DNA from: an uncultured Clostridia bacterium
GTDB taxonomy: Bacteria; Bacillota; Clostridia; Christensenellales; UBA1242
NCBI GenBank assembly: GCA_934772445.1
Contig: CAKVMJ010000002.1
Location: 9,475 to 73,474 of the forward strand
Length of the DNA stretch: 64,000 nt
Direction of reading: 5' to 3'
The position numbers and the translations under genes were made by a program. The notes beneath the pieces are model-generated. The model ran no database searches, was not told the origin of the DNA, and saw only the letters and a program-made list of their open reading frames with translations. This document shows positions 12,577 through 41,228 of the stretch, in pieces. The first letter of the stretch is position 1. Each line of letters opens with the position of its first letter.

Positions 12577-12839
12577 AAGTATCCGCCTTTTAAAATATAA
12601 GTAATTTCCTAGTTGCAAATAAAGTTATAATATAATATCTAATAGAGTTTATAATATAATTTACATACAAATTGATTATAACTTAATTCAAATAATTATT
12701 CAACTAAAATAATGTAGATTTATTCTTTTTTTTTCGTTATTATTTGAAATTTTGCGTTCAAATACCCATTTGGAAAATTTTTCCAATTTTATTTTGTTTA
12801 AATTTTTATTTTTTATTCATAATTGCGAATACTATTATT

Positions 12840-13731: not shown

Positions 13732-16164
13732 TTAAGCCTTTTTTCTGTTTTTCATTTTAATATAGAAAATAAGCAAGAATATCCCGCTAACTAAAGCAAT
13801 TGAGCTTATAATTATAGCAGTTAATTGACTAGAATTAATACCATTTAATCTTATAAATTTAGTTTCAACCCAGCCAACTTGTTCCACTTGGTTTTCATCA
13901 TAATAAGTGATATAAGTTAATGTTTTTGTGCTATCTAATTTATCAACATAAATTCTATATTCGTGAGGTAAGGTTGTTTTAATATTATTCTCATCAATAG
14001 AGTTGAATCTATAAATATTAACTGTGTTATCTTTATCATAAGCATTTATTTTGGCATTTGATTCTTTTAGGTTTACCACATCTTCTTCATTAAAGAAAAC
14101 ATCAGCTGAATTAATATAACCATAACAATTTTCTAAATAAACGATAAAGAAATTGTTGCCAGCGAAAGAGATAGGGTATTTAGAATAAATTGTTTTATAA
14201 CTATCTATTTCAAGAGTTTCTAAAACTTCAACATTAGATGAATTTAAACCTGATGGTTTTGCAAAAACATAAGTTTTAGTGTTTGCAGTTTTAATACTAG
14301 TTGGTCTTTCAATATAATTAAAATCAACATTGGTATATAATCTTATTGCACAAATTGCGTTATCAAATGCATAAATAATTCCGCTAGTTGGGTTGATAGA
14401 AATATCGTAAAAACTGCTAAAATCTGCCTTTGTTTCGGATTTTATTGTAAAATTATTATTAAGATATTTTATTTTAGAAATTGTGTTATCAGATAGAGCA
14501 TAGATGTTATCAAATTCATCAACTGCTATGCTTCTAATATTGGAAATTAATGTTGTTTTAGCTTCTAATCCGCCAAATTCGGAAAGAATATATAAACCGT
14601 TTGATGAATAGAAAATAATCTTATTTGAATTTGGTAAAACATCAATTAAGCAGTTTTCATCAAACCCTAAGATTGAATTAAAGTTTAACACAACGGCAGA
14701 AGGGGAGGAAGCACTGCAAGTAAGCAAGCCTTTAGCGGTTAAAATAATTAAAGTTTCGTTAATTTTTTTCAAACCTAGAATTGTTGGGATAGATGTTAAA
14801 GTTGAATCAATTGAATATTGGGTTATTGCAAGAGTTTCATTTGTTTCAAGGTTGTATTTAATAACTGCACTTGTTGTTGAAGAGATTTTTACGCTATAAA
14901 AAAGTATATTTTCAGTAAATTGTACAGGGTGGTTAGCGTTTACAGATAATGGATAAGTGTTTTTTAAAACATTGGCTTTATTATTTGAAATTAATTGAAT
15001 ACGGTTGTTTAATGGGTCGCCAACAAGTATTTTGTCGTTTGAACTAACACTTAATGTGGCATTCTTGTTAAATCTTCCCAAACTTCCACAAACAGAAGCT
15101 ATTAAAACATTTTCGCCAATCATCTCAGCACCATTATCACTTATATTTAATGCAAAAGATTGAATACTTTTAGTTCCGTTATCCGCAACAAGCATTTTAC
15201 CATTAAAGAATTTTATATCAATAGGAGAGTTAATTCTTCCGCATTTAAAGCCATTATTATCTTCTAAGGTTTCATCGCCTTTTTTCCAGTTTGTTTGGTC
15301 AATACTCTCAGTTAGTGGTATATCTGTTTTTACTAAGCAAACATTTTTAGTTGAAATAGCAAGCACATAGTCATTTAGATTTTTTTGTGCAACTATTAAA
15401 ACTGATGCGTTTGATGGATAAAATTTACTTGGATTATTAATTACAATCGTTGGAAGAACAGAAATTGTGAATAATTTATTTTGATTTGTTTCATCACCAG
15501 CCACTGCATAGATTTTGTTTTCGTTTGAATTTGCGATATTTGAGAACTTGGTGATAGGGCTAGTTGAACTAGTATTATCGTTTATATCTTTAATTGTGAT
15601 AATTCCAGAACTCTTAATTTGTATGCAATTTTCATTAGTGATAAGGTAGTAGTATTTCAGAAAAGTTGGATTTAGAGTTGAAATAAAGATTTGAGAAGAA
15701 TTATCATTTGCAGTTTCGATAATGGAGATTTTATCAAATAAATTAATATTGAAATTATTATTTGTTTCATCTTTTATGTTGATTTTCTCAAAATTGGATA
15801 AAGAATAAACATTTAAAATACTTCCGCTAGATTTTTTATCGCCAATAAATAAAAACTTATTTGAAAGTTTTAGATATTCAATATTTTCAAAATGTTCTAA
15901 TAATTTTTCAGATTTATTTCTTCTATTTAAAATTTCAATGCTAGAGGAATTAGTTGTGTAAACAATAAAACTGCTATTAACATCAAAGCAGGTTATGTTT
16001 GTTAAATCTTTTGAAAACTCACTATCCTCAATATAAAGTTCGCTTAAAATTGAATCATCTGCTATTTCATCGGCAAAAACATCTACTTGGTTAAAACCAC
16101 TAAATAAAGCCGAAATTAATATACAAATTGTTATAAAATATAAATAAATTTTCCTATTTTTCAT
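13732..16164 (-). CDS. surface protein with a signal peptide, NHL/beta-propeller-like repeats, two SH3b-like domains and a C-terminal TM anchor
   Basis: An N-terminal signal sequence. NHL-like strings (KMLVADNGTKSIQSF, LVGDPLNNRIQLI). Two SH3b-like modules near the C-terminus, then LTAIIISSIALVSGIFLLIFYI and a basic tail. Confidence 0.6.
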   Translation of the reverse strand: MKNRKIYLYFITICILISALFSGFNQVDVFADEIADDSILSELYIEDSEFSKDLTNITCFDVNSSFIVYTTNSSSIEILNRRNKSEKLLEHFENIEYLKLSNKFLFIGDKKSSGSILNVYSLSNFEKINIKDETNNNFNINLFDKISIIETANDNSSQIFISTLNPTFLKYYYLITNENCIQIKSSGIITIKDINDNTSSTSPITKFSNIANSNENKIYAVAGDETNQNKLFTISVLPTIVINNPSKFYPSNASVLIVAQKNLNDYVLAISTKNVCLVKTDIPLTESIDQTNWKKGDETLEDNNGFKCGRINSPIDIKFFNGKMLVADNGTKSIQSFALNISDNGAEMIGENVLIASVCGSLGRFNKNATLSVSSNDKILVGDPLNNRIQLISNNKANVLKNTYPLSVNANHPVQFTENILFYSVKISSTTSAVIKYNLETNETLAITQYSIDSTLTSIPTILGLKKINETLIILTAKGLLTCSASSPSAVVLNFNSILGFDENCLIDVLPNSNKIIFYSSNGLYILSEFGGLEAKTTLISNIRSIAVDEFDNIYALSDNTISKIKYLNNNFTIKSETKADFSSFYDISINPTSGIIYAFDNAICAIRLYTNVDFNYIERPTSIKTANTKTYVFAKPSGLNSSNVEVLETLEIDSYKTIYSKYPISFAGNNFFIVYLENCYGYINSADVFFNEEDVVNLKESNAKINAYDKDNTVNIYRFNSIDENNIKTTLPHEYRIYVDKLDSTKTLTYITYYDENQVEQVGWVETKFIRLNGINSSQLTAIIISSIALVSGIFLLIFYIKMKNRKKA

Positions 16165-16334: not shown

Positions 16335-16364
16335 TTGATTTTTTTTATTTTAACATATTATAAT
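16335..16364 (+). promoter_or_regulatory. sigma-A-type promoter of the sigma-like regulator gene
   Basis: TTGATT (16335-16340), an 18-nt spacer, then TATAAT (16359-16364). Confidence 0.5.
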
Positions 16365-16378
16365 AGAACAAATGTTCT
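16365..16378. promoter_or_regulatory. LexA operator (Cheo/SOS box)
   Basis: AGAACAAATGTTCT, a perfect GAAC-N4-GTTC core. It matches about 12 of 14 positions of CGAACRNRYGTTYC and abuts the -10 hexamer. Confidence 0.6.
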
Positions 16379-16450
16379 AAGATATTGCAAAAAATTTTAG
16401 AAAATTTGAAACAAAATAGCAAATTGAAATTAATTAAAAGGAGTTGAATT

Positions 16451-16963
16451 ATGAAATTAGAAGATTGGAGTAAGATTATTTTATCTTATTACAGTTATTT
16501 GGAGCAATCTGTGAAAGCGATAGATAAATTTGTTTTAGATAAATGCGTTTATACATCATACTTTGATTGTGGATTAAATTTTGACATTGAGAAAAGATTT
16601 AACAAAGTTATGGAACTAATAGATAAAAAAAGGCGTTTTATAAATCTAAAAGTAATAATCGAAAAAGCTCTCACGCAAATTAATGAAAAATATAGGAAAA
16701 TATTAGTTTTGTTTTATATAGACCAATTATCTTGTGAAGAAATTGCAAGATTAATGAATTTGAATATAAGAACATTTTTTAGATATAAAAATCAGGCCAT
16801 AACATCGTTTTCAAAGGCATTATCAAGAGAGGGGTTTAATATTGAATATTTCAATGAAAACTATGCTTCAGATAAATGGTTATTTATGGTTAATACATAT
16901 CACACAAAATGCGGAAATATGAAAAGAATTAATGAATATAAGTTAATAAGTTCGTTTTTATAA
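16451..16963 (+). CDS. sigma-70 region-4-like (ArpU/Xpf/DUF1492-type) transcriptional regulator
   Basis: 170 aa. The string KYRKILVLFYIDQLSCEEIARLMNLNIRTFFRYKNQAITSF is a sigma region-4 HTH pattern. Its size and position resemble phage late-gene activators. Confidence 0.6.
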   Translation: MKLEDWSKIILSYYSYLEQSVKAIDKFVLDKCVYTSYFDCGLNFDIEKRFNKVMELIDKKRRFINLKVIIEKALTQINEKYRKILVLFYIDQLSCEEIARLMNLNIRTFFRYKNQAITSFSKALSREGFNIEYFNENYASDKWLFMVNTYHTKCGNMKRINEYKLISSFL

Positions 16964-17719
16964 AAGAGAATCGTAATCAATTTTATCGTTTGAGCGAACC
17001 ACTTTTGCTTTAACTTTTGGCTTTGATGGTGGTTTGAATAATAAAACCATTACAGCTATTACTGGTAACATTATAACACTAATTAAAATTATGCAAGTGG
17101 AATTAGATAAGGGATTTACAGTTAGAAAACCATCGTTGTTTGAAAAACTTACAGTTTCTGTGTTTACGGAAATTGCAGGCAGATTATTTAAGTAACCATT
17201 ATAAATATAGCCATAAACTCCCATATAGTCCACAAGATACCAAATATTGCCAAAGTAGTCCATAACATAGTCGCCGTAAATTTTGCCAATATAGTTAATA
17301 TCGCTGGAGTTGGCTGGAACCGTTAGTAAAACAGTGGCGTTAGATGATGGTGCGGACCTTAAATTGCATTTAAAATTGTTTGTTTTGAGTTTTGCAATAG
17401 GATATGGATTTTTAGGTATTGATGAACAAATTTTAACATTTGTTTTTTCAACATATCCATTAACTCCGTTATAATTAACATTATAGAAGTTGTCGTTTTC
17501 AAAAACGCAGATTTTAACGAAATATGTGGGTTCTAGGTAACAAACGATATTTGAAATATCTAAGTTTGAATTAGCGGTTTTATAGAGTATGCAAGATTTT
17601 TGAATTTGTGCAAATTCATTATAGGCAAAATATATTGAGTTTGGAAAAGTGCTAAGTAAAAGAATAAATAATATATTTATAAGCACGATAAAATTTAATT
17701 TATTTGTGTTAATTTTCAT
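16958..17719 (-). CDS. signal peptide, two SH3b-like domains and a C-terminal TM anchor
   Basis: It has the same C-terminal architecture as the 810-aa protein (SH3b-SH3b-TM-basic tail). It is convergent with the regulator gene and overlaps it by 6 nt. Confidence 0.55.
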   Translation of the reverse strand: MKINTNKLNFIVLINILFILLLSTFPNSIYFAYNEFAQIQKSCILYKTANSNLDISNIVCYLEPTYFVKICVFENDNFYNVNYNGVNGYVEKTNVKICSSIPKNPYPIAKLKTNNFKCNLRSAPSSNATVLLTVPANSSDINYIGKIYGDYVMDYFGNIWYLVDYMGVYGYIYNGYLNNLPAISVNTETVSFSNNDGFLTVNPLSNSTCIILISVIMLPVIAVMVLLFKPPSKPKVKAKVVRSNDKIDYDSLL

Positions 17720-17823
17720 CTTATTTATATTCTAAATAATAGAGGATTAAATCACAATTTGAAAGTTGAAAGAATTTATGTTTTTTTGACTTTTTTTGTA
17801 CTTTTCATTTAGGGGGTGAGATA

Positions 17824-19263
17824 TTGAAAGATGCGGAAATTATAGAAAAATTAAACCGAATAGAAAAAGAACTTTTATTACATTCTTCAAATAAGCTGGA
17901 AAATTATAATAAAGGTGAAAAGGTTCATAAAAAGCAATTAGAGTTCCATAAAAATATGCATAGAAATAGGTGGGTTTTTGGTGGAAACAGAAGTGGTAAA
18001 ACTGAATGTGGAGCGGTGGAAACAGTTTGGCTTGCTAGGGGCATACACCCATTTAAACCTAATAAAAAAGATGTTTGTGGTTGGGTGGTTTCTTTATCAA
18101 CTCAAGTTCAAAGAGATGTTGCACAAGCAAAAATCTTTAGCTACTTAAATAAGGATTGGATACAAGATATAAAGATGAGTACGGGCAGAAAGGATTCGCC
18201 AGAGTTTGGCGTGGTTGATACCATTATAATAAAGAATATTTTTGGAGGATTATCTAAAATTGGATTTAAAACTTGTGATCAAGGTAGAGAAAAATTTCAG
18301 GGAACTAGTTTGGATTTTGTTTGGTTTGATGAAGAACCACCATTAGATATTTATCTGGAATGTAGAATGAGAGTTTTGGATAAGTGTGGTGAGATATTTG
18401 GTACAATGACACCTTTAAAAGGATTAAGTTGGGTTTATAACTATATCTATTTAAATGAATTTAACGATGAAGATATTTGGTATATACAAATGGAATGGGC
18501 AGATAATCCGTATCTAAATTATGAAGAGATAGAGAAATATACAAAAGCTTTTAGCGAGAGTGAATTAAATTCAAGAAGATATGGATTGTTTGAAAACTTT
18601 GGAGGCATTGTTTATAACGAATTTGATCCAAATGTTCATATAATCGAGCCATTTGAAATTCCGAAAGAATGGCAGGATAACTTATCTATAGACCCAGGGC
18701 TTCATAATCCGCTTAGTTGTCATTGGTATGCAGTTGATTACGATGAAAATATTTATGTGGTGGCGGAACATTATGAGGCAAATAAAGATGTGGCATACCA
18801 TTCGAAAAAGATAAAAGAAATATCTAAGCGTTTGAATTGGAAAACCACAAAAAATGGCTACATACAAGCATTAATAGATAGTGCTGCAACTCAAAAAACT
18901 TTAGCAAGCGAAAAGAATGTTGTTGATTTGTTTTATGATAATGGCATTGTGGTAAACACAAAAGTTTGTAAGGATTTATATAGCGGAATTAATAGAGTGA
19001 AAAGTTATTTAAGAAATGGTGAGAGCAAGCCAAAACTTTTTATATTTAAAAATTGTGTGAATTTAATTCGGGAGATAAAAGGATATTTTTGGGGTAATGA
19101 TGATGTGCCAATAAAAAAAGATGACCACGCATTAGATGAACTTAGATATTATATAATGTCCCGACCTGCGCCTCCAGTTTTAAAACAAGAAAAAAGTGAG
19201 ATTGTGAGAAATAAAGAAATGCTTTATCGTAAATTGAAATATCGAAGAATGGGGTACTATTAA
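17824..19263 (+). CDS. phage terminase large subunit
   Basis: Walker A GGNRSGKT and Walker B LDFVWFDEEP. A C-terminal RNaseH-like nuclease with IDPGLHNP, LIDSAA and DDHALDELRY. TTG start after a GGGGGTGA RBS. Confidence 0.9.
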   Translation: MKDAEIIEKLNRIEKELLLHSSNKLENYNKGEKVHKKQLEFHKNMHRNRWVFGGNRSGKTECGAVETVWLARGIHPFKPNKKDVCGWVVSLSTQVQRDVAQAKIFSYLNKDWIQDIKMSTGRKDSPEFGVVDTIIIKNIFGGLSKIGFKTCDQGREKFQGTSLDFVWFDEEPPLDIYLECRMRVLDKCGEIFGTMTPLKGLSWVYNYIYLNEFNDEDIWYIQMEWADNPYLNYEEIEKYTKAFSESELNSRRYGLFENFGGIVYNEFDPNVHIIEPFEIPKEWQDNLSIDPGLHNPLSCHWYAVDYDENIYVVAEHYEANKDVAYHSKKIKEISKRLNWKTTKNGYIQALIDSAATQKTLASEKNVVDLFYDNGIVVNTKVCKDLYSGINRVKSYLRNGESKPKLFIFKNCVNLIREIKGYFWGNDDVPIKKDDHALDELRYYIMSRPAPPVLKQEKSEIVRNKEMLYRKLKYRRMGYY

Positions 19264-19562
19264 TGTTTAATGAAAAGCAGAATAATGAAGAATTGAAAAA
19301 AGCGTTAGTTAAAAAAGCGTTAGGATATAGTACGGAAGAAGTGGTGGAAGAATATTCTTTAGTGGATAACGATTTAGTTCTAATTAAAAAAAAGAAAAGC
19401 ATAAAGGATTATCCTCCAGACTTGCCAGCTATTAAATATTTGCTTGATGAAGAGTGTGAGGAAGATGAATATAAAAGTTATACAAAAGAAGAATTAGAAG
19501 AAGAAAAACAACGCTTACTTAGAATGTTAAGAGATAATAAAGGAGAAGAAGATGGAGATTAA
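19263..19562 (+). CDS. small acidic protein, possibly related to a terminase small subunit
   Basis: 99 aa. The string KKALGYSTEEV...KKKKSIKDYPPDLPAIKYLL resembles the K..PPD..A..F/YLL pattern of some Firmicutes phage small terminases. The ATG overlaps the TerL stop. Confidence 0.35.
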   Translation: MFNEKQNNEELKKALVKKALGYSTEEVVEEYSLVDNDLVLIKKKKSIKDYPPDLPAIKYLLDEECEEDEYKSYTKEELEEEKQRLLRMLRDNKGEEDGD

Positions 19563-19794
19563 AGAAGCAAAATTTAAAGTTAAATGCGATGTTGCTGGTT
19601 GCAGAAATTATGGAATGGTATATATAGAGAATAAAGGTTTTTTATTAGATAAAAGCATCTATTTATGTGAGGATTGCGTTAGGCAAATTTATGAATGGTA
19701 TGCAAAAAGAATAACTCCACCAAGCATATCTAATATGCTTAATAAAAAGGGTTTAATTGATGATAAACCTAAAAAGAAAAAGAGAGGTGAATAG
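19552..19794 (+). CDS. four-Cys zinc-ribbon protein with a basic tail
   Basis: 80 aa. It has C-x4-C, then about 27 residues, then C-x2-C (KCDVAGC...LCEDC) and ends in KPKKKKRGE. Confidence 0.5.
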   Translation: MEIKEAKFKVKCDVAGCRNYGMVYIENKGFLLDKSIYLCEDCVRQIYEWYAKRITPPSISNMLNKKGLIDDKPKKKKRGE

Positions 19795-19796
19795 AA

Positions 19797-21725
19797 TTGA
19801 AAAGAAGAGTAAAAGATGTGGAAAAAATGCGAGAAGAAAATAAAAGTATTTTTGAAGAGCAACAACTGGTAAACGAAATTTTGGAAGATTTAAAAAATAG
19901 GCAAATTGCTCGCAGACAATTAGAAACTAATTGGCAATTAAACATCAATTTCTTTATTGGTAATCAATATTGCGGAATAAACACCAATGGAGATATTGTT
20001 GATGGCTATAAACAATATTTTTGGGAAGAAAGAGAAGTTTTTAATCATATTGCACCTTTAGTAGAGCTTAGGCTTAGTAAACTTGCTAATGTTAGACCAT
20101 CTTTAACCGTTTTGCCGTTTTCTGATGAAATGGAAGATATAGCGAGTGCGAAAGTAAGCAAAAAGATTTTAAAGTCTGTTTGCCACGAGATAGGTTTTTC
20201 AAAACTTTTGCAAGAAGCCACAAGGTGGAGCGAAATTTGCGGTACTGTTTTTTATAAAATTGGTTGGAATGATAAAAAAGGCAGATTTATAGCAAAAAAC
20301 GAAACTGGTAATAAGATTTATGAAGGCGATGTGGAAGTAAGCGTGGTAAGTCCGTTTGAAATTTATCCAGATTCAAATACCTATTCTTCCATTGAAGAAT
20401 GTGAGAGTATTATATATGCCCGTTCATTTTCAAGTAAAGAAGTTAAAAATAAATGGGGAGTTGAAGTTGAGGGTAAAACGATAAATGTTTTCTCATTAGA
20501 TAATATAACTTCTGTTGGCGGACTTGGATATAATGCTACAAGTTCAGCTCTAGCAAAAACCACAAAACTTGATCAAGTTATAGTTTTGGAAAAATACGAA
20601 AGTCCATCTATAGAATATCCGAATGGCAGACTTATTATAATAGCTGGAGATAAACTTGTTTATATGGGCGAACTACCATATATAAATAAAGAAAATGGTG
20701 AGAGAGGTTTTCCGTTTGTTAGGCAATGTGCAATACCAATTCCTAATTCATTTTTTGGGATTAGCACAATTGATAGATGTATTCCAATTCAAAGGGCATA
20801 TAACGCAATAAAGAATAGAAAACACGAATTTTTAAATAGACTAACAATGGGAATTTTAGCAGTGGAAGATGGTTCTGTAGATACGGAAGATTTAGAAGAG
20901 GAGGGCTTATCTCCGGGTAAAGTTTTAATATATAGGCAAGGTGCGAATGCACCAAAACTTTTATCCACTGGCTCTGTTCCGCTAGATTTTCAATATGAAG
21001 AAAATCAGCTTTTAAGCGAGTTTTTAAATGTGAGTGGTGTAAATGATTTATTAAATGCAAAAACGATTAGTACAAATATATCTGGTGTGGCGTTACAATT
21101 ATTGATTGAGCAAGACGAGGTAAGGCTGTTATCTAGTGCGGAAGAAATACGAAACGCAGCAAAAGAAACGGCAAAACAAATGCTAAGACTATTTAAACAA
21201 TTCGCACTTTTACCACACACTTCAAGAATTGTTGGTGAAGATGGCGGAATTGAAATGTTTTATTGGCAAAATTCGGATATACAAGCTGATGATATTGTAT
21301 TCGAAACAGAAAACGAGATAAATGAAACAGTTGCACAAAAACGCAGTATGATATTGGATATTTTAAAAACAGGCTTGCTTCACGATGAAGATGGTAAATT
21401 ATCTAATTCGGTTAGAACTAAGTTGCTTGAGCAATTGGGTATGGGACTTAGTGTTTTAGATAACGAACAAGATTTAAAATCGCTTCAAACAAAACAAGCC
21501 ACAAAAGAAAATTTAAGACTTATTGATGAAGATATTATAGAGCTTCCAAAAGAAATTGATGAACACGATATTCATATTTCAAGTCATATTGGCTTTATGC
21601 TTTCAAAAGAGTTTGATAAAGCTTCTAAGAAAAATCCAAAATTAGAAAAGAAACTACTCGAACATATCAAAGACCATAAAAGATACTTAAATTTAACAAA
21701 AAAAGCAGAAGAAATGCAAAATTAA
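19797..21725 (+). CDS. phage portal protein
   Basis: 642 aa, directly after the terminase genes and before the scaffold and capsid genes. TTG start after a GAGGTGA RBS. The call rests on size and position. Confidence 0.7.
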   Translation: MKRRVKDVEKMREENKSIFEEQQLVNEILEDLKNRQIARRQLETNWQLNINFFIGNQYCGINTNGDIVDGYKQYFWEEREVFNHIAPLVELRLSKLANVRPSLTVLPFSDEMEDIASAKVSKKILKSVCHEIGFSKLLQEATRWSEICGTVFYKIGWNDKKGRFIAKNETGNKIYEGDVEVSVVSPFEIYPDSNTYSSIEECESIIYARSFSSKEVKNKWGVEVEGKTINVFSLDNITSVGGLGYNATSSALAKTTKLDQVIVLEKYESPSIEYPNGRLIIIAGDKLVYMGELPYINKENGERGFPFVRQCAIPIPNSFFGISTIDRCIPIQRAYNAIKNRKHEFLNRLTMGILAVEDGSVDTEDLEEEGLSPGKVLIYRQGANAPKLLSTGSVPLDFQYEENQLLSEFLNVSGVNDLLNAKTISTNISGVALQLLIEQDEVRLLSSAEEIRNAAKETAKQMLRLFKQFALLPHTSRIVGEDGGIEMFYWQNSDIQADDIVFETENEINETVAQKRSMILDILKTGLLHDEDGKLSNSVRTKLLEQLGMGLSVLDNEQDLKSLQTKQATKENLRLIDEDIIELPKEIDEHDIHISSHIGFMLSKEFDKASKKNPKLEKKLLEHIKDHKRYLNLTKKAEEMQN

Positions 21726-21736
21726 AGGAGAAATAA

Positions 21737-22378
21737 ATGGATAAATTGAATAATATTGGAGAACAACCTATAAATCAAGATGTGAGCAATGTTGCGGAGG
21801 CAAGTAAGGAGATTAGTGCGGACACACAAGATTTTGATGGCTCTCCAATTGGGAAATTTAAAGATGTCAAAAGTTTGTTTAGTGCCTATGCTGAACTTGA
21901 AAAGGAGTTTACAAAAAAGTGTCAGCGAGTAAGCGAACTGGAAAAGCAGAAAACCGATAATGCAGAAGCAAATGCACCGGTATTTATGCAAAATAATTGG
22001 CAAAATGAGATTGAAAGTTTTTTAAAATCTCATAACGAGGCACAAATATTTGCAAAAGACATCGCAAAAGAGTTGATGGAAAATAAAGATTTAGCAAATA
22101 ATCCAAATGCTTTAGATTTGGCTTACGCTAAAGTGCTTTCCAAAAATTATAAATCTGCAGATGAACTTTTGGGCGATGAAACTTTTGTAAATGAAAAAAT
22201 ATTAAATAATGAAAAAATTAAGAGCCAAATTATAAACGATTATTTAAAAGGTGTTGTACAAAATTCAACCCCACCATTAATTTTAGATAATAAAGGCTCT
22301 AGTTTGGGCTTTGCATTAGAGCAAACTCCAAAAAACTTAGAAGAGGCAAAAAGAATGGTGGAAAAGATGTTTAAGTAA
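21737..22378 (+). CDS. phage scaffolding protein
   Basis: 213 aa, acidic and helical. The string FKDVKSLFSAYAELEKEFTKK is typical of capsid scaffolds. It lies between the portal and capsid genes. Confidence 0.55.
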   Translation: MDKLNNIGEQPINQDVSNVAEASKEISADTQDFDGSPIGKFKDVKSLFSAYAELEKEFTKKCQRVSELEKQKTDNAEANAPVFMQNNWQNEIESFLKSHNEAQIFAKDIAKELMENKDLANNPNALDLAYAKVLSKNYKSADELLGDETFVNEKILNNEKIKSQIINDYLKGVVQNSTPPLILDNKGSSLGFALEQTPKNLEEAKRMVEKMFK

Positions 22379-22398
22379 TTTGGCAAAAGGAGAAAATT

Positions 22399-23709
22399 TT
22401 GATTACTTTAACAACCGCTGAAAAAGCATTAAAAACTGTTTATTTAGGTGCAGTTGCAAATCATTTAAACCTAAAAGCAAACCCATTTTTAGCAAAAATG
22501 AATCAATCCACTTGTAATATCATTGGAAACGAAATTGTTAAAGTTGCTCCTTATGGAGTTAATGGTGGATTTGGTGCATTGCTAGAAGATAGTGCACTTC
22601 CAGAAGCAGTAAGTACTAGTTTTGAAAAGTTTAGAGAAACTTTAAAAAATTTATATGGTAAGATTGAGATTTCAGATAAAGCAGTAAGAGCAAGTCAAAG
22701 TAGTTCGGGTGCGTTTGTAAACTTGCTTAATAGCGAAATGGAATCATTAATCAAAACTTGTTCCTTCCATTTAGCAAGAATGTTGTTTGGTGATGGAACT
22801 GGTAACCTTGGAAATGTTGCAGAACATTATCCTCAAATTGATGCTTATGCCACTTATGATGATGTAAGAAATTTTGTTGAAGGTATGATTGTAGATTTTG
22901 AAGATACAACTAATGCTTCAAAAACCTATGCTCAAAATGTGGTTACATCTGTTGATAGAAGTTTGAATAGAGTTTATTTCAAAAATTCTTTCACCACTGC
23001 ATTAAATACAAATTGTATTACATATCTTCCAAATTCAAAAAATAATGAATTAACAGGTCTTGGTAAGATATTTAAAAAAGATTCATCATTATATGGCGTG
23101 GATAGAAGTCAAAATAAATGGCTAAACCCAAAAACTGTTACTAATGCTGGACAAATTACAGATATTATAATCCAAAAAATGATTGATGATTTAGAAGATT
23201 ACTATGATAGCGATATAGACTATATCACTTGCTCTAGTGATGTTAAAAGATATTATCAAGAATACTTGCAATCATTCAGAAGAAACATTGATTATATGGA
23301 ATTAAATGGCGGATATAAAGCAATGTCTTATGGTGGTATTCCAATTGTTTCAGATAGATTTGCACCAAAAGGTAGTATGTATATCTTAAATTCAAAAGAT
23401 TTCAATCTATATCAATTATGTGATTGGACTTGGCTTGAAGGTGATGATGGTAGAATTTTAAAACAAAATCCGGGTTACGCAACTTATAGCGCAACATTAG
23501 TTAAGTATGCCGAAATGATGTGTGATAGACCTGCAGCACAAGGATTGATTACTGGTATTACATCTGGTAGTACAGATTATGCAAAACAAATTGCAACTAA
23601 TACTAGCACAATCGCCACTAAAACTGGCAATATTGCCACATCTACTGGTAAATTAGCTCAAGATTATGCCACTGTTAATGCCACTGCTTTAACAACTAAT
23701 GGTGAATAA
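22399..23709 (+). CDS. phage major capsid protein
   Basis: 436 aa, following the scaffold gene. The N-terminal pattern (LKTVYLGAVANHLNLKANPFLAKM...ISDKAVRAS) is capsid-like. The C-terminus carries an IAT-repeat tail. Confidence 0.65.
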   Translation: MITLTTAEKALKTVYLGAVANHLNLKANPFLAKMNQSTCNIIGNEIVKVAPYGVNGGFGALLEDSALPEAVSTSFEKFRETLKNLYGKIEISDKAVRASQSSSGAFVNLLNSEMESLIKTCSFHLARMLFGDGTGNLGNVAEHYPQIDAYATYDDVRNFVEGMIVDFEDTTNASKTYAQNVVTSVDRSLNRVYFKNSFTTALNTNCITYLPNSKNNELTGLGKIFKKDSSLYGVDRSQNKWLNPKTVTNAGQITDIIIQKMIDDLEDYYDSDIDYITCSSDVKRYYQEYLQSFRRNIDYMELNGGYKAMSYGGIPIVSDRFAPKGSMYILNSKDFNLYQLCDWTWLEGDDGRILKQNPGYATYSATLVKYAEMMCDRPAAQGLITGITSGSTDYAKQIATNTSTIATKTGNIATSTGKLAQDYATVNATALTTNGE

Positions 23710-23739
23710 TATAAAAAGTTTAAATTCAGGGGGAGAGTT

Positions 23740-24120
23740 ATGAGGTTAATAAAAATAGATAATGATGTTTTTGATATTTCTAAAAGAATTAAAGAAATAG
23801 ATAAAGATTATTATATTGTTTATAATTTAAAAACAAATAAATTTGAAGTTCATAATTCTTCCCAGAATTTGAACTCCTATGCATTAACTTGTCCGTATGA
23901 AAAGTTAGATAAACGGCTTTTGGATTACACTATGAAAACTAGGATTTGTAATTCAGATAAATTATTAGATGAAATTGATAACCATAATAGAAAAATAGAA
24001 AAAGAAATTGAAGAGAAAAGAAAAGATGAGAGTGGTATTATTTTTAAAGAAATTTATAAGTATGCAAACTTAAGCAAAAACTTTGATGAGAATAAAGCCT
24101 ATAAAAATAAATGGTTGTAA
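23740..24120 (+). CDS. hypothetical phage-module protein
   Basis: 126-aa intact ORF with an RBS (GGGGGAG), in the structural operon. Confidence 0.5.
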   Translation: MRLIKIDNDVFDISKRIKEIDKDYYIVYNLKTNKFEVHNSSQNLNSYALTCPYEKLDKRLLDYTMKTRICNSDKLLDEIDNHNRKIEKEIEEKRKDESGIIFKEIYKYANLSKNFDENKAYKNKWL

Positions 24121-24129
24121 GGAGAAGTT

Positions 24130-24699
24130 ATGGAAGTTAAAAAAATTTTAAAAAATGTTGCTATATATTTGCAGTTAACAGATGTTTACGATTTTTTAGT
24201 TAATAACAAATCAGCCACACTTGATTTGATGACAGAGGTGGATTTGCTGGTTTCTTGCGTAAACTTTGTTAACAATTTGATTGCAACAGATTATATAAAA
24301 CTTGTTAAAACGAAAGAACTAACAGTTAGTTCTAATTATGAAATTAAATTTGAAAATATTTCAACAGAAGAAATGCTAGGAGTTTTATCTATAAAAACTA
24401 TGAGTGGAGATAAAATTCCTTTTGTTTTAACTAACACTGGAGTGGTTGTAAATTATAGTGGAAAGGTTAAAATTAAATATGCTTATTTTCCTAATGAAGT
24501 GGAGTTAACGGGAAGTGTTAATGATTATAAAACAAAAATTAATGAAAGAATTTTTGCTTACGGTGTTGCTTCAGAATACTTATTTATTAAAGGAAATATT
24601 GATGATGCATCTATGTGGGATACTAGATTTAAGCGAGCTTTATTAAATCTAACAAGACCAATAAGCTCTATAAAAATGCCACTTGAAAAAATGATTTGA
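24130..24699 (+). CDS. hypothetical phage-module protein (head-completion or adaptor-sized)
   Basis: 189 aa with an RBS (AAGGAGAAG). Its position after the capsid gene matches head-closure proteins. Confidence 0.5.
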   Translation: MEVKKILKNVAIYLQLTDVYDFLVNNKSATLDLMTEVDLLVSCVNFVNNLIATDYIKLVKTKELTVSSNYEIKFENISTEEMLGVLSIKTMSGDKIPFVLTNTGVVVNYSGKVKIKYAYFPNEVELTGSVNDYKTKINERIFAYGVASEYLFIKGNIDDASMWDTRFKRALLNLTRPISSIKMPLEKMI

Positions 24700-24710
24700 G
24701 GGGGGGTGTT

Positions 24711-26213
24711 ATGTTTTATAATAATAACTTAGGATTAAAAAATATTACATATAAAAAATATAATTTAACATCTTTTGCAAATGGTATAAACCCAAATATT
24801 GATGAACAATTATTGCCTCTCACAACTGCTGTTACCACATATAATTTAAACTTTAATAATGGTGCATTAAAAACTGGTATGGGTGTTAAACCATTAAGTA
24901 TATCTTATAGTTTTGAAAATAAAAATTTAAAGAAAACTTTGAATAAAATTTCGGGTGTAGATTTCCTTGGAATGTGGGAATATAGTAGGTGGAATTCTGC
25001 AATGAATAGGTTTGAAAAATATCTTTTGGCGTATGGTAATGATGGGTATATGTATCAAGCATATTTATATTTTGATTATACAAATTTTATAAAATTAACT
25101 GCACTTCATTTTGATTCAATGCCTAATGTTGTGAGCTATTATTTGAATGGATTAGATGTTGCTTTAATATCAACCAACACAAATGGAATGTGGGTTTGGT
25201 CACCTGAGAAAACTCCATATAAAGTGAGTAACGCACCTAAAATTACGAGTATGTGCTTGCATTATGAAAGATTATTTGCAACCATTTCTGGAGATAATAG
25301 AACGATATGGTTTAGTGATGATTTAGATCCAACAAATTGGAATGTATCTCTCTCAGAGGGTGGTTTTATTTCTTTATATGATGAACGAGGCGGTGCAAAT
25401 AAAATAGTAAGTTTTAAAGACCATTTATATGTTTTTAGAGAGTTTGGAATATCAAGAATAACAGCTTATGCTAATCAAGAGAATTTTTGCGTAGCACATC
25501 TTTTTACCAGCAGTGAAAGAGTTTATGACAAAACTATAGTAATTTGTGGCAATAATATATTATTTCTTGCCAACGATGGGATATATTCATTTGATGGAAG
25601 TAGTACCATAAAATTGAATTTAAAACTAGAAAAATTATTAAAAAATATAAATAATGAAAATGCAGTTGGTGCATATTTTAATGGTAAGTATTATCTTGCA
25701 TTAAAATTAAATTATGGTGATGATAGAATTATTAATTGTGAATCTGAAGATGATTATGTTAATAACGCAATGATAGAATTAGATTTAAAAACAGGTAATG
25801 TTAATTTTATGAGGGGGATAGATATTAGAAATTTAAGCCCTGTGGTAACAGAACTTGATAGTGCTTTAATTTGTCTTATAAAATTAGCTGATGAAATTTC
25901 TATAACTCAATATTGTGATGATTGCGGTAAGTATATTGCTAATAACACAAATAAAGGTTGGGTATCTCCTAAAACAAGTTTTGGTTATCCTTTAAAACAA
26001 AAACTAATCAAATCTATAACGCTTGTAACTAAATATGATGTTGATATAATTTTAAATCTTGATGGCAGAAAAACCACATTCAAATTAAAGGGAAAAGAAC
26101 TTCCTCAAACTATCTATCCAAACTTAAAAGGTTACTTATTTGGTATTGAGTTTTTCACGACAACTGCTGAAGCTTATATAACCAATTCAAGCATTGTGGT
26201 GGGGATATTATGA
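24711..26213 (+). CDS. hypothetical phage structural protein (about 500 aa, beta-repeat-like)
   Basis: I prefer the ATG at 24711, after a GAGGGGGG RBS. Recurrent strand-like motifs (WFSDDLDPTNW, DHLYVFREFGISRI, ILFLANDGIYSFDG). Size and position are analogous to P22 gp10. Confidence 0.5.
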   Translation: MFYNNNLGLKNITYKKYNLTSFANGINPNIDEQLLPLTTAVTTYNLNFNNGALKTGMGVKPLSISYSFENKNLKKTLNKISGVDFLGMWEYSRWNSAMNRFEKYLLAYGNDGYMYQAYLYFDYTNFIKLTALHFDSMPNVVSYYLNGLDVALISTNTNGMWVWSPEKTPYKVSNAPKITSMCLHYERLFATISGDNRTIWFSDDLDPTNWNVSLSEGGFISLYDERGGANKIVSFKDHLYVFREFGISRITAYANQENFCVAHLFTSSERVYDKTIVICGNNILFLANDGIYSFDGSSTIKLNLKLEKLLKNINNENAVGAYFNGKYYLALKLNYGDDRIINCESEDDYVNNAMIELDLKTGNVNFMRGIDIRNLSPVVTELDSALICLIKLADEISITQYCDDCGKYIANNTNKGWVSPKTSFGYPLKQKLIKSITLVTKYDVDIILNLDGRKTTFKLKGKELPQTIYPNLKGYLFGIEFFTTTAEAYITNSSIVVGIL

Positions 26214-27379
26214 TAAATGAAGAAATGTTTGTTTTGCAATCTCAGATAAACGAACTAAAGAAAAATTACGAAGAAGTTTCTTCATATAATAAGAGCATTG
26301 AGAAATTTAATTTTATATTAAAGCCGTTAGAAACTCAGTCTGTAAAATCTTTAAATTTTAAATGCTTTGAAAAGTATATAGTTTTAAAATTTAGAGGAAA
26401 GCAGAATTGTGAAAATTCTTTTTATATAAATTTTAATTCTGTAACAATTTTTAAAACAAGCGAAAAAGTTTTTGCAAAAGAATTTATCTTAGAAGTAAAT
26501 AAGGTAAATTCAATTGAAATTTTTTATAAAGGTAATTCTGATGAAACTATAAAAACTTTTATGGAAATTTATGGTTCTATAGAGTTGGAAAATTTTAAAG
26601 GAATGAACTTAAGTAAAATTAATTCAAAATATTATTTGATAAATCAAAATGAAAAAATGTTAGAGAACTTTGATTCTTTAGATATGCTTGAAATTTTTGA
26701 TGGTGGTTTCGAAAATTTAGAAGGATATATTGCTTGTTGTGAGAAATATAATATATCTGAATTTAAAGCAGATGACTTACTTTTGCTTTTAAAAGAAGAT
26801 TCTAAATATTATGTTCGGAGTTGCTTAAATTCAAATAGAAATTTGGTTTTGGAAAATGGCGAGGCTTATGGAATGTTTCCAATTTTAGATGAAACATATA
26901 AATATGGATTGTTTTGCAAAGTTGGTAATGATTATAAAATTAAATATTTTAAATTGGATAACACCACAGATAAAGAAGATGTTTTAAATTTGAATTTAAA
27001 GTTTGATATTTTTAAAGCGGGTGGATTTTGTTATATTGAGAGCGGTATATCACATTATGGATTTTGGTTTATAGATGTTAATAATGATGCGTATTTGGTT
27101 TTTTCAAAGTTAAGTGCGGTTGGAGAAACTAACGAATTTTATGAGCCAATCTATGTTGGAAAATCTAACCACATTAATATATATTTATATAATAGTAATA
27201 TAGTAAGTTTTAATAGTATAAATAATTTTGTGGTTTATAGTGAGTACTCGCTCTCAATATTATCAAGCGTTGCATCGCTTACAAAAACTCAATTAAAAAA
27301 ATATAAGAATGTGGAATATGGATTTGTTGTTGGAGAAAATAAAATGCTTTATTCAAATGGGTGCTTAACATATTTATAA
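26210..27379 (+). CDS. hypothetical phage-module protein
   Basis: 389 aa. Its start overlaps the previous stop (ATGA). It has an N-terminal coiled coil. Confidence 0.5.
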   Translation: MINEEMFVLQSQINELKKNYEEVSSYNKSIEKFNFILKPLETQSVKSLNFKCFEKYIVLKFRGKQNCENSFYINFNSVTIFKTSEKVFAKEFILEVNKVNSIEIFYKGNSDETIKTFMEIYGSIELENFKGMNLSKINSKYYLINQNEKMLENFDSLDMLEIFDGGFENLEGYIACCEKYNISEFKADDLLLLLKEDSKYYVRSCLNSNRNLVLENGEAYGMFPILDETYKYGLFCKVGNDYKIKYFKLDNTTDKEDVLNLNLKFDIFKAGGFCYIESGISHYGFWFIDVNNDAYLVFSKLSAVGETNEFYEPIYVGKSNHINIYLYNSNIVSFNSINNFVVYSEYSLSILSSVASLTKTQLKKYKNVEYGFVVGENKMLYSNGCLTYL

Positions 27380-27390
27380 GAGGAGAAACA

Positions 27391-28320
27391 ATGAATAAAT
27401 ATATAGATAAGGAAACTTCAAAGAAAGTTGATGCAATCACAAATGATGCTTTTGCAAACGATCTTGTTGAAAAGATTAAAGATTTTAATTCAAAGTTTGA
27501 TACAAGTGTTGGAAATGTTCCTAAAAACGAGCTTGATTTAGATAGGCTTGAAGATATTGTTATAGATGATAATAAAATTGCAAAACAAGTTGAGGAAGAA
27601 TTATTTGATTATAAGAAATCTGGAATAGATAAAATCAATAATCAAACTAAATTAAAAGAAGAAGAGTTAAACTTAAATAAAGAGAGTTTAAAAAATTCAT
27701 ATAATAGTTCAAAAGAAAAAATAGAAGAGAATTATGCAAATGCAAGGCAAAGAACGAGTGATGAGGCATTGAAAAGGGGTATTAGTAGAAGTAGTATTGT
27801 TATAAACCAGCTAGATGCTTTTAATAGAGAGGAATTGGATTTATATAATAAGTTAGATGAAGAACTAACATCAAAGATAAATCAAGTAGATTTCGAATTA
27901 AATGCTTTGCAAACTCAGCAAGATTTAGCACTTAGCGAGTTTGATATTGCTTATGCAGTTAAATTAAATTCAAAGATAAATTCTTTAAAACAAGGATTAA
28001 TAGATAAACAAAACGAGGTTTTGAAATATAATAATCAAATTGCAGAAAAGGAAGCCCAATATAAATTGAAATACGAACAATTAGAACAAGATTTAAGAAA
28101 CGAGGCTTGGGATAAAGAAAAGGATTTAATAAATCTTGCAAGTAAGTATGGAGTAAAAGCAGTTGAAAAATATAAACAAACTAAAATATATAATATGGTA
28201 GATGAATATTTGGCATCACTTTCAAAAGAAGAAGCGAAAAAGATTTTAGAAAATAATGAAGAGGTTAGAAACTATTTAACTTCCACAAACTTAAATGCTC
28301 TGTTAAATAAATATAAGTAA
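27391..28320 (+). CDS. coiled-coil phage-module protein
   Basis: 309 aa from the ATG at 27391, after an AGAGGAGAAA RBS. Long heptad-like K/E/L/N-rich stretches. Confidence 0.5.
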   Translation: MNKYIDKETSKKVDAITNDAFANDLVEKIKDFNSKFDTSVGNVPKNELDLDRLEDIVIDDNKIAKQVEEELFDYKKSGIDKINNQTKLKEEELNLNKESLKNSYNSSKEKIEENYANARQRTSDEALKRGISRSSIVINQLDAFNREELDLYNKLDEELTSKINQVDFELNALQTQQDLALSEFDIAYAVKLNSKINSLKQGLIDKQNEVLKYNNQIAEKEAQYKLKYEQLEQDLRNEAWDKEKDLINLASKYGVKAVEKYKQTKIYNMVDEYLASLSKEEAKKILENNEEVRNYLTSTNLNALLNKYK

Positions 28321-28335
28321 ATTTAAGGGGGAAAT

Positions 28336-28581
28336 ATGTGGGAAGAAATATTTAATCTCGCAATAAATAATGGATTATGGTCAGTTTTGTTTTTAATATT
28401 GTTGGTTTATGTTTTAAAAGATAGTAAGGCAAGAGAATTAAAATACCAGCAAACTATCACCACATTAGCAGATAGCTTAGAGATAATTCAAGATGTTAAG
28501 GAAGATGTACAAGAAATAAAAAGCAAGTTGTTAAATTCAGATTTGTCTAATCCTAAAAAGGAAGATAAAGATGAAAAATAA
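28336..28581 (+). CDS. BhlA/UviB-family holin-like peptide
   Basis: 81 aa. The string MWEEIFNLAINNGLWSVLFLILLVYVLKDSKARELKYQQTI matches the BhlA/UviB pattern: an N-terminal TM helix followed by YVLK..S..RE..Y. Confidence 0.65.
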   Translation: MWEEIFNLAINNGLWSVLFLILLVYVLKDSKARELKYQQTITTLADSLEIIQDVKEDVQEIKSKLLNSDLSNPKKEDKDEK

Positions 28582-28954
28582 CTTTTCTTCGTATGCATTT
28601 TGGGTTGCAGTTACTGGTGCTATAGTAGTTTTTTTGCAAAACTTAGGCAAAGTGGTTGGTTTCAACTTTAATTCTTCAGCATTTGAAAGCATTGTATTAT
28701 CTTTTTGCGGAATTTTGGTAGTTTTGGGCGTTTTAAACCAAAATAAAGATGAAAACTCAGATTTAAAAGAAGATGAACCAAATTTAAAGGATAGTTCGAA
28801 TGAAAATGAAGAATTATCTAAAGAAATAAAGGAAGAAAATGAGGAAAATATAGCCAAAACTAATAATGAAAACATAGAGAATAATGAAAATGATATAAAA
28901 AATGAAACAAGTGATGAGATTAATAAAATAGACCATAAAAACGAAAAAGACTAG
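28571..28954 (+). CDS. two-TM holin-like protein with a long acidic N/E/K tail
   Basis: 127 aa. Two hydrophobic helices in the first 55 aa, then a highly charged low-complexity tail. It overlaps the BhlA-like gene by 11 nt. Confidence 0.45.
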   Translation: MKNNFSSYAFWVAVTGAIVVFLQNLGKVVGFNFNSSAFESIVLSFCGILVVLGVLNQNKDENSDLKEDEPNLKDSSNENEELSKEIKEENEENIAKTNNENIENNENDIKNETSDEINKIDHKNEKD

Positions 28955-28975
28955 ATTAAATTCTAGTCTTTTTTG
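28947..28975 (+). terminator. rho-independent terminator closing the phage-like operon
   Basis: Stem aagactaga/tctagtctt overlapping the stop codon, followed by a T-run. Confidence 0.7.
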
Positions 28976-29266
28976 CTTTTTAGATAGATATATAACTAAA
29001 TCAAAACTGAAATTAAATCTTATGTGCAATTCTCGAATTATCTATGTAATTTAAAAAGGTATGCTTATATATTCTTAGGTATAGGTAGTAATAGAATAAA
29101 TAAATCTATTACACCATAAAATTCAATAAAATGGCTTTAAATTAGGTAATAAAGCAAAAAATATAATAATTTTTTTAATAAGTTAGATAAAAATATTATT
29201 AAGTTAAGAGAATTATGGCAAATTTTGTTTAATTTAAAAATTTAGATGTTTTTATATAAAATACAC

Positions 29267-29295
29267 TTGAAATTTATTTTATTTTATGATATACT
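29267..29295 (+). promoter_or_regulatory. sigma-A-type promoter upstream of the RNase J gene
   Basis: TTGAAA (29267-29272), a 17-nt spacer, then TATACT (29290-29295) with a TGn extended -10. It leaves a leader of about 255 nt. Confidence 0.5.
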
Positions 29296-29556
29296 CTCAT
29301 CAGATTTTTAAATGGTATGCTTTTGGGCAATCATTAATTGAATAAAGGATAATTAAAAAGTTTGAGATTTTGTGCTTTTCAAATTTTTTGGAAGATTATC
29401 GAGCTTAATTTTCTATTTTAGCTAGAAATTGGTTTTGTTTTATTTTGGTGATTATTTTGGATAATACAAAAGTTTTTAGCAATATTTAATAGAAATTAAT
29501 ATATTATTTAAAACATTTAAAAATAAATAAAAATATTTACATAAAGGGAGAAATAT

Positions 29557-39100: not shown

Positions 39101-39119
39101 AAACATAGGAGATAAAATT

Positions 39120-41209: not shown

Positions 41210-41228
41210 GTGCGTTTTAGTTTGATAT

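Follow-up and report, generated by a model that had tools for sequence, protein, structure and literature searches.

A probably domesticated, podovirus-type packaging and short-tail cluster with a predicted LexA-controlled activator in gut Clostridia

In a 64-kb stretch of DNA from an uncultured Clostridia bacterium (contig CAKVMJ010000002.1; the whole stretch analysed is called the window below), a compact block of phage-type packaging, head, short-tail and lysis genes lies among host genes, downstream of a sigma-like activator gene whose promoter carries a LexA box. We consider it likely that this block is a chromosomally fixed and vertically inherited element derived from a podovirus, a 'viriform' of the type represented by gene transfer agents (GTAs) and PBSX. 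Having no integrase, excision or replication genes, the element cannot propagate itself. By analogy, a GTA-like particle is the most likely product, a PBSX-style killer particle being the main alternative. The wide spread of the cluster, its synteny, the low dN/dS of its genes, their co-divergence with a host gene, the preserved TerL motifs and the conserved box together exclude a recently acquired or decaying prophage, and they indicate a long-maintained, host-controlled function that includes DNA packaging.

Thirteen open reading frames (ORFs) of the + strand are packed between positions 17824 and 28954 with all frames intact, as the original prediction had stated and the ORF listing of the window bears out. 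Their junctions overlap or are very short (19263/19263, 19552/19562, 24696/24699, 26210/26213, 28571/28581), and the whole block, with its head, short-tail, packaging and lysis genes, occupies 12.6 kb. GC content is about 29% across the window, with no compositional step at the block. Non-nested ORFs of at least 100 residues were scanned against Pfam between 3.2 and 64 kb, and the block was additionally compared with PHROGs and NCBIfam. Six of its ORFs were named by these family searches, namely TerL, the portal, the capsid protein, the DUF7934 coiled coil, the BhlA holin and a second holin; the matches confirm the TerL, portal, capsid and two holin assignments first made by reading the sequence. 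No integrase, recombinase, replication protein, tape measure, sheath, long-tail protein, tailspike or endolysin was found among the scanned ORFs, so that the absence of these genes, initially claimed for 13.7-29.5 kb, holds over 3.2-64 kb. The flanks, where the missing modules of a prophage might have lain, carry host genes on both sides. The features of the unit are as follows.

16335-16364, + strand: promoter candidate TTGATT-18-TATAAT, from reading of the sequence
16365-16378, + strand: LexA box AGAACAAATGTTCT, a perfect palindrome directly abutting the -10 hexamer of the promoter
16451-16963, + strand: sigma-70 region-4-type activator, ArpU/RinA/Xpf-like, 170 residues (Sigma70_r4_2 5.4e-09, DUF1492 2.8e-06, phrog_36 1.6e-12, phrog_248 3.7e-08)
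16958-17719, - strand: SH3 membrane protein, 253 residues (SH3_3 3e-10), in which an N-terminal signal or anchor precedes tandem SH3 domains of bacterial type and a transmembrane helix lies at the C-terminus
17824-19263, + strand: large terminase TerL, packaging ATPase and nuclease (Terminase_6N 1.1e-12, phrog_2 4.5e-30)
19263-19562, + strand: TerS-like protein, 99 residues (matching phrog_309 positions 195-261 of 319, the C-terminal third)
19552-19794, + strand: 80-residue protein with a CxxxxC...CxxC zinc-ribbon pattern and a basic tail, from reading of the sequence
19797-21725, + strand: portal protein, P22/SU10-like (P22_portal PF16510 1.7e-17, phrog_156 3.3e-34)
21737-22378, + strand: putative scaffolding protein, from position and composition, without a family match
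22399-23709, + strand: major capsid protein (NCBIfam NF033394 capsid_maj_Podo, 254 bits against a cut-off of 80; phrog_14242 9.5e-55)
23740-24120, + strand: conserved virion or assembly protein, 126 residues (a weak phrog_17018 match only)
24130-24699, + strand: predicted head-to-tail adaptor of T7 gp11/SU10 type, 189 residues
24696-26213, + strand: predicted tail nozzle, a beta-propeller of the P22 gp10/T7 gp12 class, 505 residues
26210-27379, + strand: hypervariable post-nozzle protein, 389 residues, from position and divergence
27361-28320, + strand: coiled-coil DUF7934 protein (PF25588 6.6e-37)
28336-28581, + strand: BhlA-family holin-like protein (PF10960 1.9e-16, phrog_2429)
28571-28954, + strand: second holin (phrog_297 3.9e-10, weak Phage_holin_1)
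28942-28975, + strand: intrinsic terminator hairpin at the end of the operon, a 14-bp stem followed by a T run

The relatives of this cluster provide the strongest evidence on its nature. In a scan of one genome per GTDB species, a relative of the capsid protein was found in at least 563 species, and the best 80 of these loci were fetched for comparison (single loci and contigs are cited by L numbers). These 80 belong to uncultured Clostridia, metagenome-assembled genomes (MAGs) labelled Christensenella/Christensenellaceae, Ca. Borkfalkia, Ca. Alloclostridium and 'Subdoligranulum sp. CAG:314'. At 90% identity, relatives of the capsid protein form more than 5670 clusters, many of which lie on contigs of 0.1-1 Mb; at 50% identity, there are 2275 representatives. 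A tblastn map revealed a shared order of activator, SH3 gene on the opposite strand, TerL, TerS-like gene, the 80-residue ORF (not in all loci), portal, scaffold, major capsid protein, 126-residue ORF, adaptor, nozzle, variable gene, DUF7934 gene, BhlA and holin. Presence was counted gene by gene with tblastn over the 50 loci that have full flanks: the portal and the major capsid protein were found in all 50, the adaptor in 45, the nozzle in 44, TerL in 39, the 126-residue protein in 38 and the BhlA holin in 33. The GC content of the loci, from 25 to 60%, tracks that of their hosts. Host genes directly flank the block in related contigs of 400-700 kb, and L002, L003 and L005 likewise have host flanks on both sides and no mobility or replication genes. 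RNase J is the next gene downstream in 19 of the 53 loci with enough flank, often followed by a methyltransferase and a U32 peptidase, which places these loci at the same chromosomal site as the window.

Selection and descent tell a similar story. With the nearest relative, L006 (capsid protein 89% identical), as the reference, every gene of the element has a dN/dS between 0.02 and 0.21 and a dS like that of the flanking host genes; the ratio is 0.025 for TerL and 0.019 for the 80-residue protein. Across 15 genomes, element proteins and RNase J show correlated pairwise distances (Mantel r 0.88 for the portal, 0.71 for the nozzle, 0.60 for TerL and 0.55 for the capsid protein; all p <= 0.0005). 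Domestication had been proposed from the window alone, with synteny and dN/dS as the means of checking it. The comparison supports the proposal: the block is neither patchy nor strain-specific, it is under purifying selection and it diverges together with RNase J.

These results bear directly on the possibility that the block is one arm of an ordinary or decaying prophage, that is, the structural half of a temperate podophage with lysogeny and replication modules elsewhere or recently lost. The gene content is indeed purely phage-like, 40 such fragments stand in IMG/VR as viral contigs, and the neighbourhood is not common to all loci. However, host genes border the block both in the window and in the long contigs, no integrase lies within at least 10 kb on either side, and all genes are intact at the low dN/dS values given above. 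The breadth of the capsid relatives in host species and GC content, the order kept in the loci compared and the agreement between element and RNase J distances also contradict such an origin, and we hold it to be highly improbable.

The ancestry of the element nevertheless appears to lie with phages. The element has no close relative among cultured phages: none of 50,697 phage records matched the block in a nucleotide search, and the best protein matches are to the 45-kb Arthrobacter podophages of the genus Jasminevirus (Brad, Adat and Jasmine), with 26% identity for the capsid protein and 24% for the portal. The element and these phages have in common the order TerL, two small ORFs, portal, one further gene and major capsid protein. 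In IMG/VR, 40 contigs (L086-L125) carry the module; most are short pieces that keep the gene order of the element and even its host-like flanks, which indicates that they are the chromosomal element itself filed as a virus. A different case is L121 (IMGVR_UViG_3300001682_000242, 60 kb; region 1-21161), whose capsid protein and portal are 40% and 42% identical to those of the window and which also has the 126-residue protein. Its genes include those for an HNH endonuclease, a polynucleotide kinase, a TerL of another type and, right after the nozzle, at the position of the hypervariable protein, a tail fibre of 1394 residues; it is probably a podophage, free or temperate, that shares kinship with the ancestor of the element. 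Jasminevirus and L121 differ from the element by genomes of 45-60 kb with lysin, tail fibres, HNH, replication and nucleic-acid-metabolism genes, and they have neither host flanks nor a LexA-controlled activator. Judged by these proteins, the element appears as a stripped-down derivative of a podophage lineage.

The packaging genes show what has been preserved. TerL has a Walker A motif GGNRSGKT and a Walker B motif DFVWFDEE; in 73 orthologues, no variation occurs in these two, in a TMTP motif or in the nuclease residues D290, D434 and D438. The 99-residue ORF that follows is matched by the small-terminase family phrog_309 in 29 of 30 orthologues, with a best E-value of 2.9e-07; the protein is devoid of the N-terminal two thirds of the family and has no recognisable DNA-binding domain. 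The 80-residue protein is conserved in 24 of the 50 loci. A 'Recombinase' match of this ORF was weak (E 0.006 over 33 residues, below the cut-off) and was dismissed. A gene fills the scaffold position between portal and capsid genes in 47 of the 50 loci, and this position is also filled in Arthrobacter phage Brad. The capsid protein of the window ends in a Thr/Ala-rich extension of about 45 residues (residues 390-436, positions 23566-23709) that is common only to the closest relatives; most orthologues, of 388-410 residues, are without it. In several loci, an ORF of about 700-805 residues lies between TerL and the TerS-like gene (L024 4623-6899, L043 3970-6246, L058 3536-5953; also L007, L029, L057, L067 and L070). 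It has no confident Pfam domain and could be a fibre or an accessory virion protein.

A small cluster with its own TerL, TerS-like protein, portal, scaffold and capsid protein within about 12 kb, and with no recognised fibre or lysin, also recalls a capsid-forming satellite similar to the capsid-forming phage-inducible chromosomal islands (cf-PICIs), which would build its own small capsids and need a helper phage to be induced, to replicate or to obtain tails. Scans of the block and window yielded no integrase (int), primase or replicase (pri, rep), repressor or att sites of the kind such a satellite would carry, and the predicted adaptor and nozzle of the element leave no need for a helper tail. 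Its fixed chromosomal position, its co-divergence with the host and its control by LexA instead of a helper antirepressor are further differences, and a satellite of this kind seems to us just as improbable as a prophage arm.

The original prediction had also proposed a short-tailed or tail-less particle. Profile searches of the adaptor, nozzle, TerS-like and capsid proteins against PDB sequences gave nothing significant, and the identities of the adaptor and nozzle therefore rest on structure prediction: AlphaFold2 (AF2) models were built from alignments of database homologues and compared with the PDB by Foldseek. The adaptor model (predicted local distance difference test, pLDDT, 86.5) matched the podovirus adaptors of KHP30 (7wmp_m, 1e-06), Pa223, SU10, VP1, N4, crAss001 and T7 gp11, and neither P22 gp4 nor Sf6 gp7 was among its matches; against the neck of RcGTA it reached only E 0.2-0.4. 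The nozzle model (pLDDT 87.9; predicted template modelling score, pTM, 0.87) was closest to the nozzle of Pseudomonas phage Pa223 (9nwi_Y, E 5e-23, TM-score 0.74), then to VP1, GP4, PhiM1, P22 gp10, SU10 and T7 gp12. Its match to P22 gp10 (8u10, 9jg6) has an E-value of about 1e-12 and a TM-score of 0.57-0.63, and in the BFVD library of viral structures its matches are P22 Gp10-like. The structure search of the unassigned ORFs thus provided an adaptor and a nozzle and no long-tail gene or lysin, as expected for a short-tailed particle. The finer parallel that had been drawn with the P22 order gp4-gp10 stands in part: the 505-residue protein is a nozzle of the gp10 class, but the 189-residue adaptor has the fold of T7 gp11 and SU10, not that of P22 gp4. 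Compared with P22 as a whole, the window has a P22-type portal and a gp10-type nozzle, and differs in having no gp4-type adaptor among the fold matches and no family match to the gp9 tailspike.

The gene after the nozzle is the fastest-evolving of the element, with 61% amino acid identity and a dN/dS of 0.21 to L006. Its product was detected in one of the 50 loci while its neighbours are conserved, and it is essentially unalignable past close relatives. This divergence and the position of the gene make it a candidate fibre or receptor-binding protein. The DUF7934 protein, found in 26 of the 50 loci, is probably a virion component, by analogy of its position with that of an abundant particle protein of the Faecalibacterium GTA discussed below. 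It is a coiled coil, as had been described, with the P22 needle gp26 as a conjectural counterpart. The length of 309 residues then given applies only to an internal ATG start; from the GTG start, the protein has 319 residues.

A PBSX-like killer particle would be induced by the SOS response and selected for killing competitors on adsorption, its packaged DNA being incidental and undelivered. The path from SOS through a sigma-like activator to a late operon is the logic of PBSX, the BhlA family is annotated for bacteriocin production or immunity (phrog_2429), and a hypervariable gene after the nozzle fits targeting at the level of strains. For the Faecalibacterium GTA, its authors left this option open (PMC12946183). 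On the other hand, all known particle bacteriocins kill by means of a contractile or flexible tail, a bare podoviral nozzle being without a known killing mechanism. The strong constraint on the ATPase and nuclease motifs of TerL and on the TerS-like gene would also be unexpected if the DNA content were irrelevant. We thus regard a killer particle as unlikely, though it deserves more attention than the other alternatives.

The two holins, the SOS control and the nuclease-bearing TerL, all of them conserved, could also serve an SOS-triggered module of altruistic lysis or defence, in which DNA, such as that of an invading phage, would be destroyed or sequestered through capsid assembly and packaging, and the cell would be killed by the holins. 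The fact that no lysin was found suggests membrane killing over release. The maintenance of a full set of portal, adaptor and nozzle, as required for a sealed and ejection-competent particle, argues against such a role, which appears very unlikely to us.

The regulatory region upstream of the block suggests that the element is under the control of its host. Two GAAC-N4-GTTC sites occur in the 64 kb, where 0.37 are expected, and AGAACAAATGTTCT is one of these. The related motif GAAC-N4-GTT[CT] stands upstream of the orthologous activator in 23 of 28 loci and in 2.4% of background windows. From the position and conservation of this box, the activator is predicted to be under host LexA/SOS control. 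Region 4 is the sole recognisable part of the 170-residue activator; phrog_36 and phrog_248, both of which match it, are families of transcriptional activators, and the match to the ArpU model TIGR01637 is weak (19.7 bits, cut-off 43.1). RinA and ArpU proteins turn on the late operons of staphylococcal phages (PMC3152322). The activator gene is kept at the same position in related loci. The sigma-region-4-like regulator that had been described at 16451-16963, with a LexA box at its promoter, is therefore confirmed by the Sigma70_r4_2 match, the perfect palindrome and the conservation of the box. The divergent SH3 gene between activator and TerL, absent from the original gene list, belongs to the unit as well: it was found by tblastn in 26 of the 50 full loci, and its product is built alike in the orthologues of L002 and L003.

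In the GTA-like reading, the genes would work together in the following way. DNA damage would inactivate LexA, as suggested by the position of the box, and the promoter of the sigma-region-4-type activator would be freed. By analogy with RinA/ArpU and with Xpf of PBSX, the activator would then turn on the 13-gene operon starting at TerL. Scaffold, capsid protein and portal would build a procapsid, and TerL with the truncated TerS-like protein would fill the head by a headful mechanism, presumably with little sequence specificity since the TerS-like protein has no DNA-binding domain, a parallel with RcGTA and FpGTA. Adaptor and nozzle, probably with the variable post-nozzle protein, would close the portal as a stubby tail, and the BhlA-type protein and the second holin would permeabilise the cell and release the particles. 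The cargo would most likely be host DNA, and the benefit most likely gene transfer or DNA-repair templating among kin.

The closest known system is FpGTA of Faecalibacterium prausnitzii (Borodovich et al., Nat Commun 2026, PMC12946183; bioRxiv 2024.11.15.623857), a podovirus-like GTA that its authors claim as the first. The original statement that no podovirus-type equivalent had been described is out of date since that report. The main operon of FpGTA, 10.5 kb long, comprises TerS, TerL, portal, a Prp-like gene, major capsid protein, adaptor, nozzle and a 'TolA-like' coiled-coil protein that is abundant in the particle (PMC12946183). A separate operon of 5.5 kb for fibre and lysis, 125 kb away, comprises fibre, baseplate, holin and endolysin genes, and the particles, about 40 nm in size and tail-less in appearance, contain 8.4-8.9 kb of host DNA (PMC12946183). 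The 'TolA-like' protein RCH50844 is the third most abundant protein of the particle (PMC12946183 supplement 4).

Like FpGTA, our element is a podovirus-type set of head and short-tail genes, about 10 kb in length, that occurs in gut Clostridia and has neither integrase nor replication genes. Both have the order TerL, portal, one gene, major capsid protein, one gene, adaptor, nozzle, one gene and coiled coil (locus tags RCH50852 to RCH50844 in FpGTA), so that the DUF7934 protein of the window occupies the same ordinal position as RCH50844. A TerS without DNA-binding domain and a near-ubiquitous presence in the host genus are further common aspects. On other aspects, the two differ. Compared through the published annotation, the capsid protein of FpGTA belongs to the N4-gp56 family and that of the window to NF033394; the window capsid profile aligned to N4 gp56 with an hhalign probability of 0.2%, and it had no capsid match in the PDB. 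In FpGTA, the scaffold position is taken by a Prp-like gene, of which the window has none, and TerS lies upstream of TerL. The adaptor of FpGTA was matched to Sf6 gp7 (7sp4), that of the window to the T7 gp11/SU10 fold. In the window, holins and activator belong to the main locus, and no fibre or endolysin locus was recognised within the 64 kb; no LexA or sigma-like control has been described for FpGTA. Assessed through the published annotation and the N4 gp56 profile, these differences in capsid protein, adaptor, Prp-like gene, activator and holins suggest that the element belongs to a sequence lineage different from FpGTA. No other description of the cluster was found in the literature. The element is apparently undescribed and very widespread; its kind has been known only since FpGTA and is thus not categorically new.

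PBSX of Bacillus subtilis is chromosomally fixed and SOS-inducible, is turned on by the sigma-like late activator Xpf, packages DNA without propagating itself and lyses a spore-forming host by means of holins. The likeness to the window, namely SOS control by a LexA box and a Sigma70_r4_2 activator, is a purely functional analogy, and TerL weakly matches the PBSX-family terminase TIGR01547. PBSX differs in having the sheath, tube, tape measure and baseplate of a myovirus, families that have no member in the block, and in its Xre repressor control and dedicated amidase XlyA. RcGTA and CcGTA share with the element vertical inheritance, purifying selection, host regulation, a TerS without DNA-binding domain and the lack of replication and integration genes. 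They differ in their siphovirus-type HK97 heads and long tails and in their regulators CtrA and GafA, and their proteins are unrelated in sequence. To our knowledge, GTAs come mostly from Alphaproteobacteria, and the Gram-positive record consists of PBSX and FpGTA only.

Christensenellaceae MAGs show GTA-like packaging of chromosomal fragments of about 4-6 kb (a peak of 4.07 kb for HGM11616 and 6.3 kb for QANA01), for which no gene cluster was named (PMC12946183). It is conceivable, and we propose it tentatively, with somewhat less than even confidence, that the element arose by an independent and ancient domestication of a Jasminevirus-like podophage, before an order-level clade of gut Clostridia (of Christensenellales type, with spore-formers among its members) radiated, and that it is the cluster behind this packaging. 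It would then be a second and far more widespread lineage of podovirus-type GTAs, wired to LexA/SOS through a sigma-like activator.

Several observations weigh against the interpretation of the element as a host-maintained GTA-like system. Particles, host-DNA cargo and transfer are deduced for it by analogy, from the gene content. The neighbourhood with RNase J is found in 19 of 53 loci only, which implies that the element moved, or its neighbourhood was rearranged, in other lineages. The dS to L006 is near saturation, and the reference gene of the Mantel tests, RNase J, is linked to the element. No shared late-promoter motif was obvious by eye in 63 regions upstream of TerL, which are AT-rich and divergent. 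The post-nozzle protein and six counterparts have no fibre, lysin or carbohydrate-binding domain in Pfam, so that no receptor-binding protein is recognisable, and the scanned ORFs include no endolysin. In one subclade (L020, L026, L028, L030, L031, L043, L058, L061, L080, L081 and L085), the genes from TerS-like through holins are retained, and neither TerL nor the activator nor the SH3 gene was found within about 6.5 kb upstream by tblastn and custom hidden Markov models. The upstream genes of L020 are instead an amidohydrolase, Tex, a pseudouridine synthase and PGI. In this subclade, either the locus is split, as it is in classical GTAs, or packaging has been lost; the dispersed auxiliary loci of RcGTA and CcGTA may be a parallel to split loci of the L020 type.

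The significance of the element lies in its combination of spread, strong purifying selection and a conserved LexA-box input, in at least 563 species-level genomes of abundant and mostly uncultured gut Clostridia. If DNA-carrying particles are made, the element would offer a major and overlooked way for genes to move between cells after DNA damage, or for DNA to be released towards kin, in the gut of humans and animals. Under the same condition, it would provide a concrete genetic handle on the unexplained packaging of bacterial DNA in Christensenellaceae viromes, for which (PMC12946183) it is an obvious candidate. Fragments of the element that virus-detection pipelines wrongly file as viral contigs, 40 of them in IMG/VR, inflate estimates of virome diversity and prophage counts.

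The chromosomal surroundings are those of a host genome. Upstream of the block lie genes for two large surface proteins with membrane anchors, for an ankyrin-repeat protein and for a LysM-GH18 protein, together with a TauE gene split in two; downstream are RNase J, an O-methyltransferase, a U32 peptidase, GroEL, LspA and RluD, and farther on a polysaccharide deacetylase, SSB, three C5 methyltransferases, ftsA, ftsZ, spoIIGA, sigE, sigG and EF-G. The ftsA-ftsZ-spoIIGA-sigE-sigG cluster occupies positions 45704-50585. The presence of spoIIGA-sigE-sigG means that the host carries the core sporulation sigma operon, and it supports the spore-former context assumed in the original prediction.

The two surface proteins, of 1083 residues (9367-12618, - strand) and 810 residues (13732-16164, - strand), each combine a signal peptide with a big ectodomain and a membrane anchor at the C-terminus, and neither is matched in Pfam or PHROGs. 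They were considered as fibres or receptor-binding proteins and rejected, as their signal peptides and C-terminal anchors give them the look of host envelope proteins kept by synteny. Homologues of the 810-residue protein stand directly upstream of the element in L014, L038, L052, L054, L087, L102, L103 and L106, and reflect either conserved synteny or an accessory part of the element. Between the two surface genes, the halves of a TauE/SafE sulfite-exporter-family gene overlap on opposite strands (C-terminal half at 12744-13280, +; N-terminal half at 13224-13664, -), which suggests an inversion or disruption.

On the downstream side, many loci have a conserved ORF of about 315 residues, without a Pfam match, between holins and RNase J (L002 15943-16887, L014 16688-17638, L003 16291-17220), sometimes joined by an extra ORF of about 270 residues; neither has a fibre, lysin or carbohydrate-binding domain in Pfam. 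The window has just an AT-rich gap of 600 bp there (28976-29556). Farther downstream, three tandem genes for C5 cytosine DNA methyltransferases followed by a 498-residue protein without family match (40256-45084) are probably a restriction-modification or defence island. Three successive small genes of Xre/Cro type, with two helix-turn-helix motifs apiece, lie on the - strand at 52901-54239. Lastly, the polysaccharide deacetylase gene forms a pair with a long SSB gene 10 kb downstream of the element in the window (38336-39815) and directly upstream of it in L003 (1991-3466), which points to a local rearrangement around the element.

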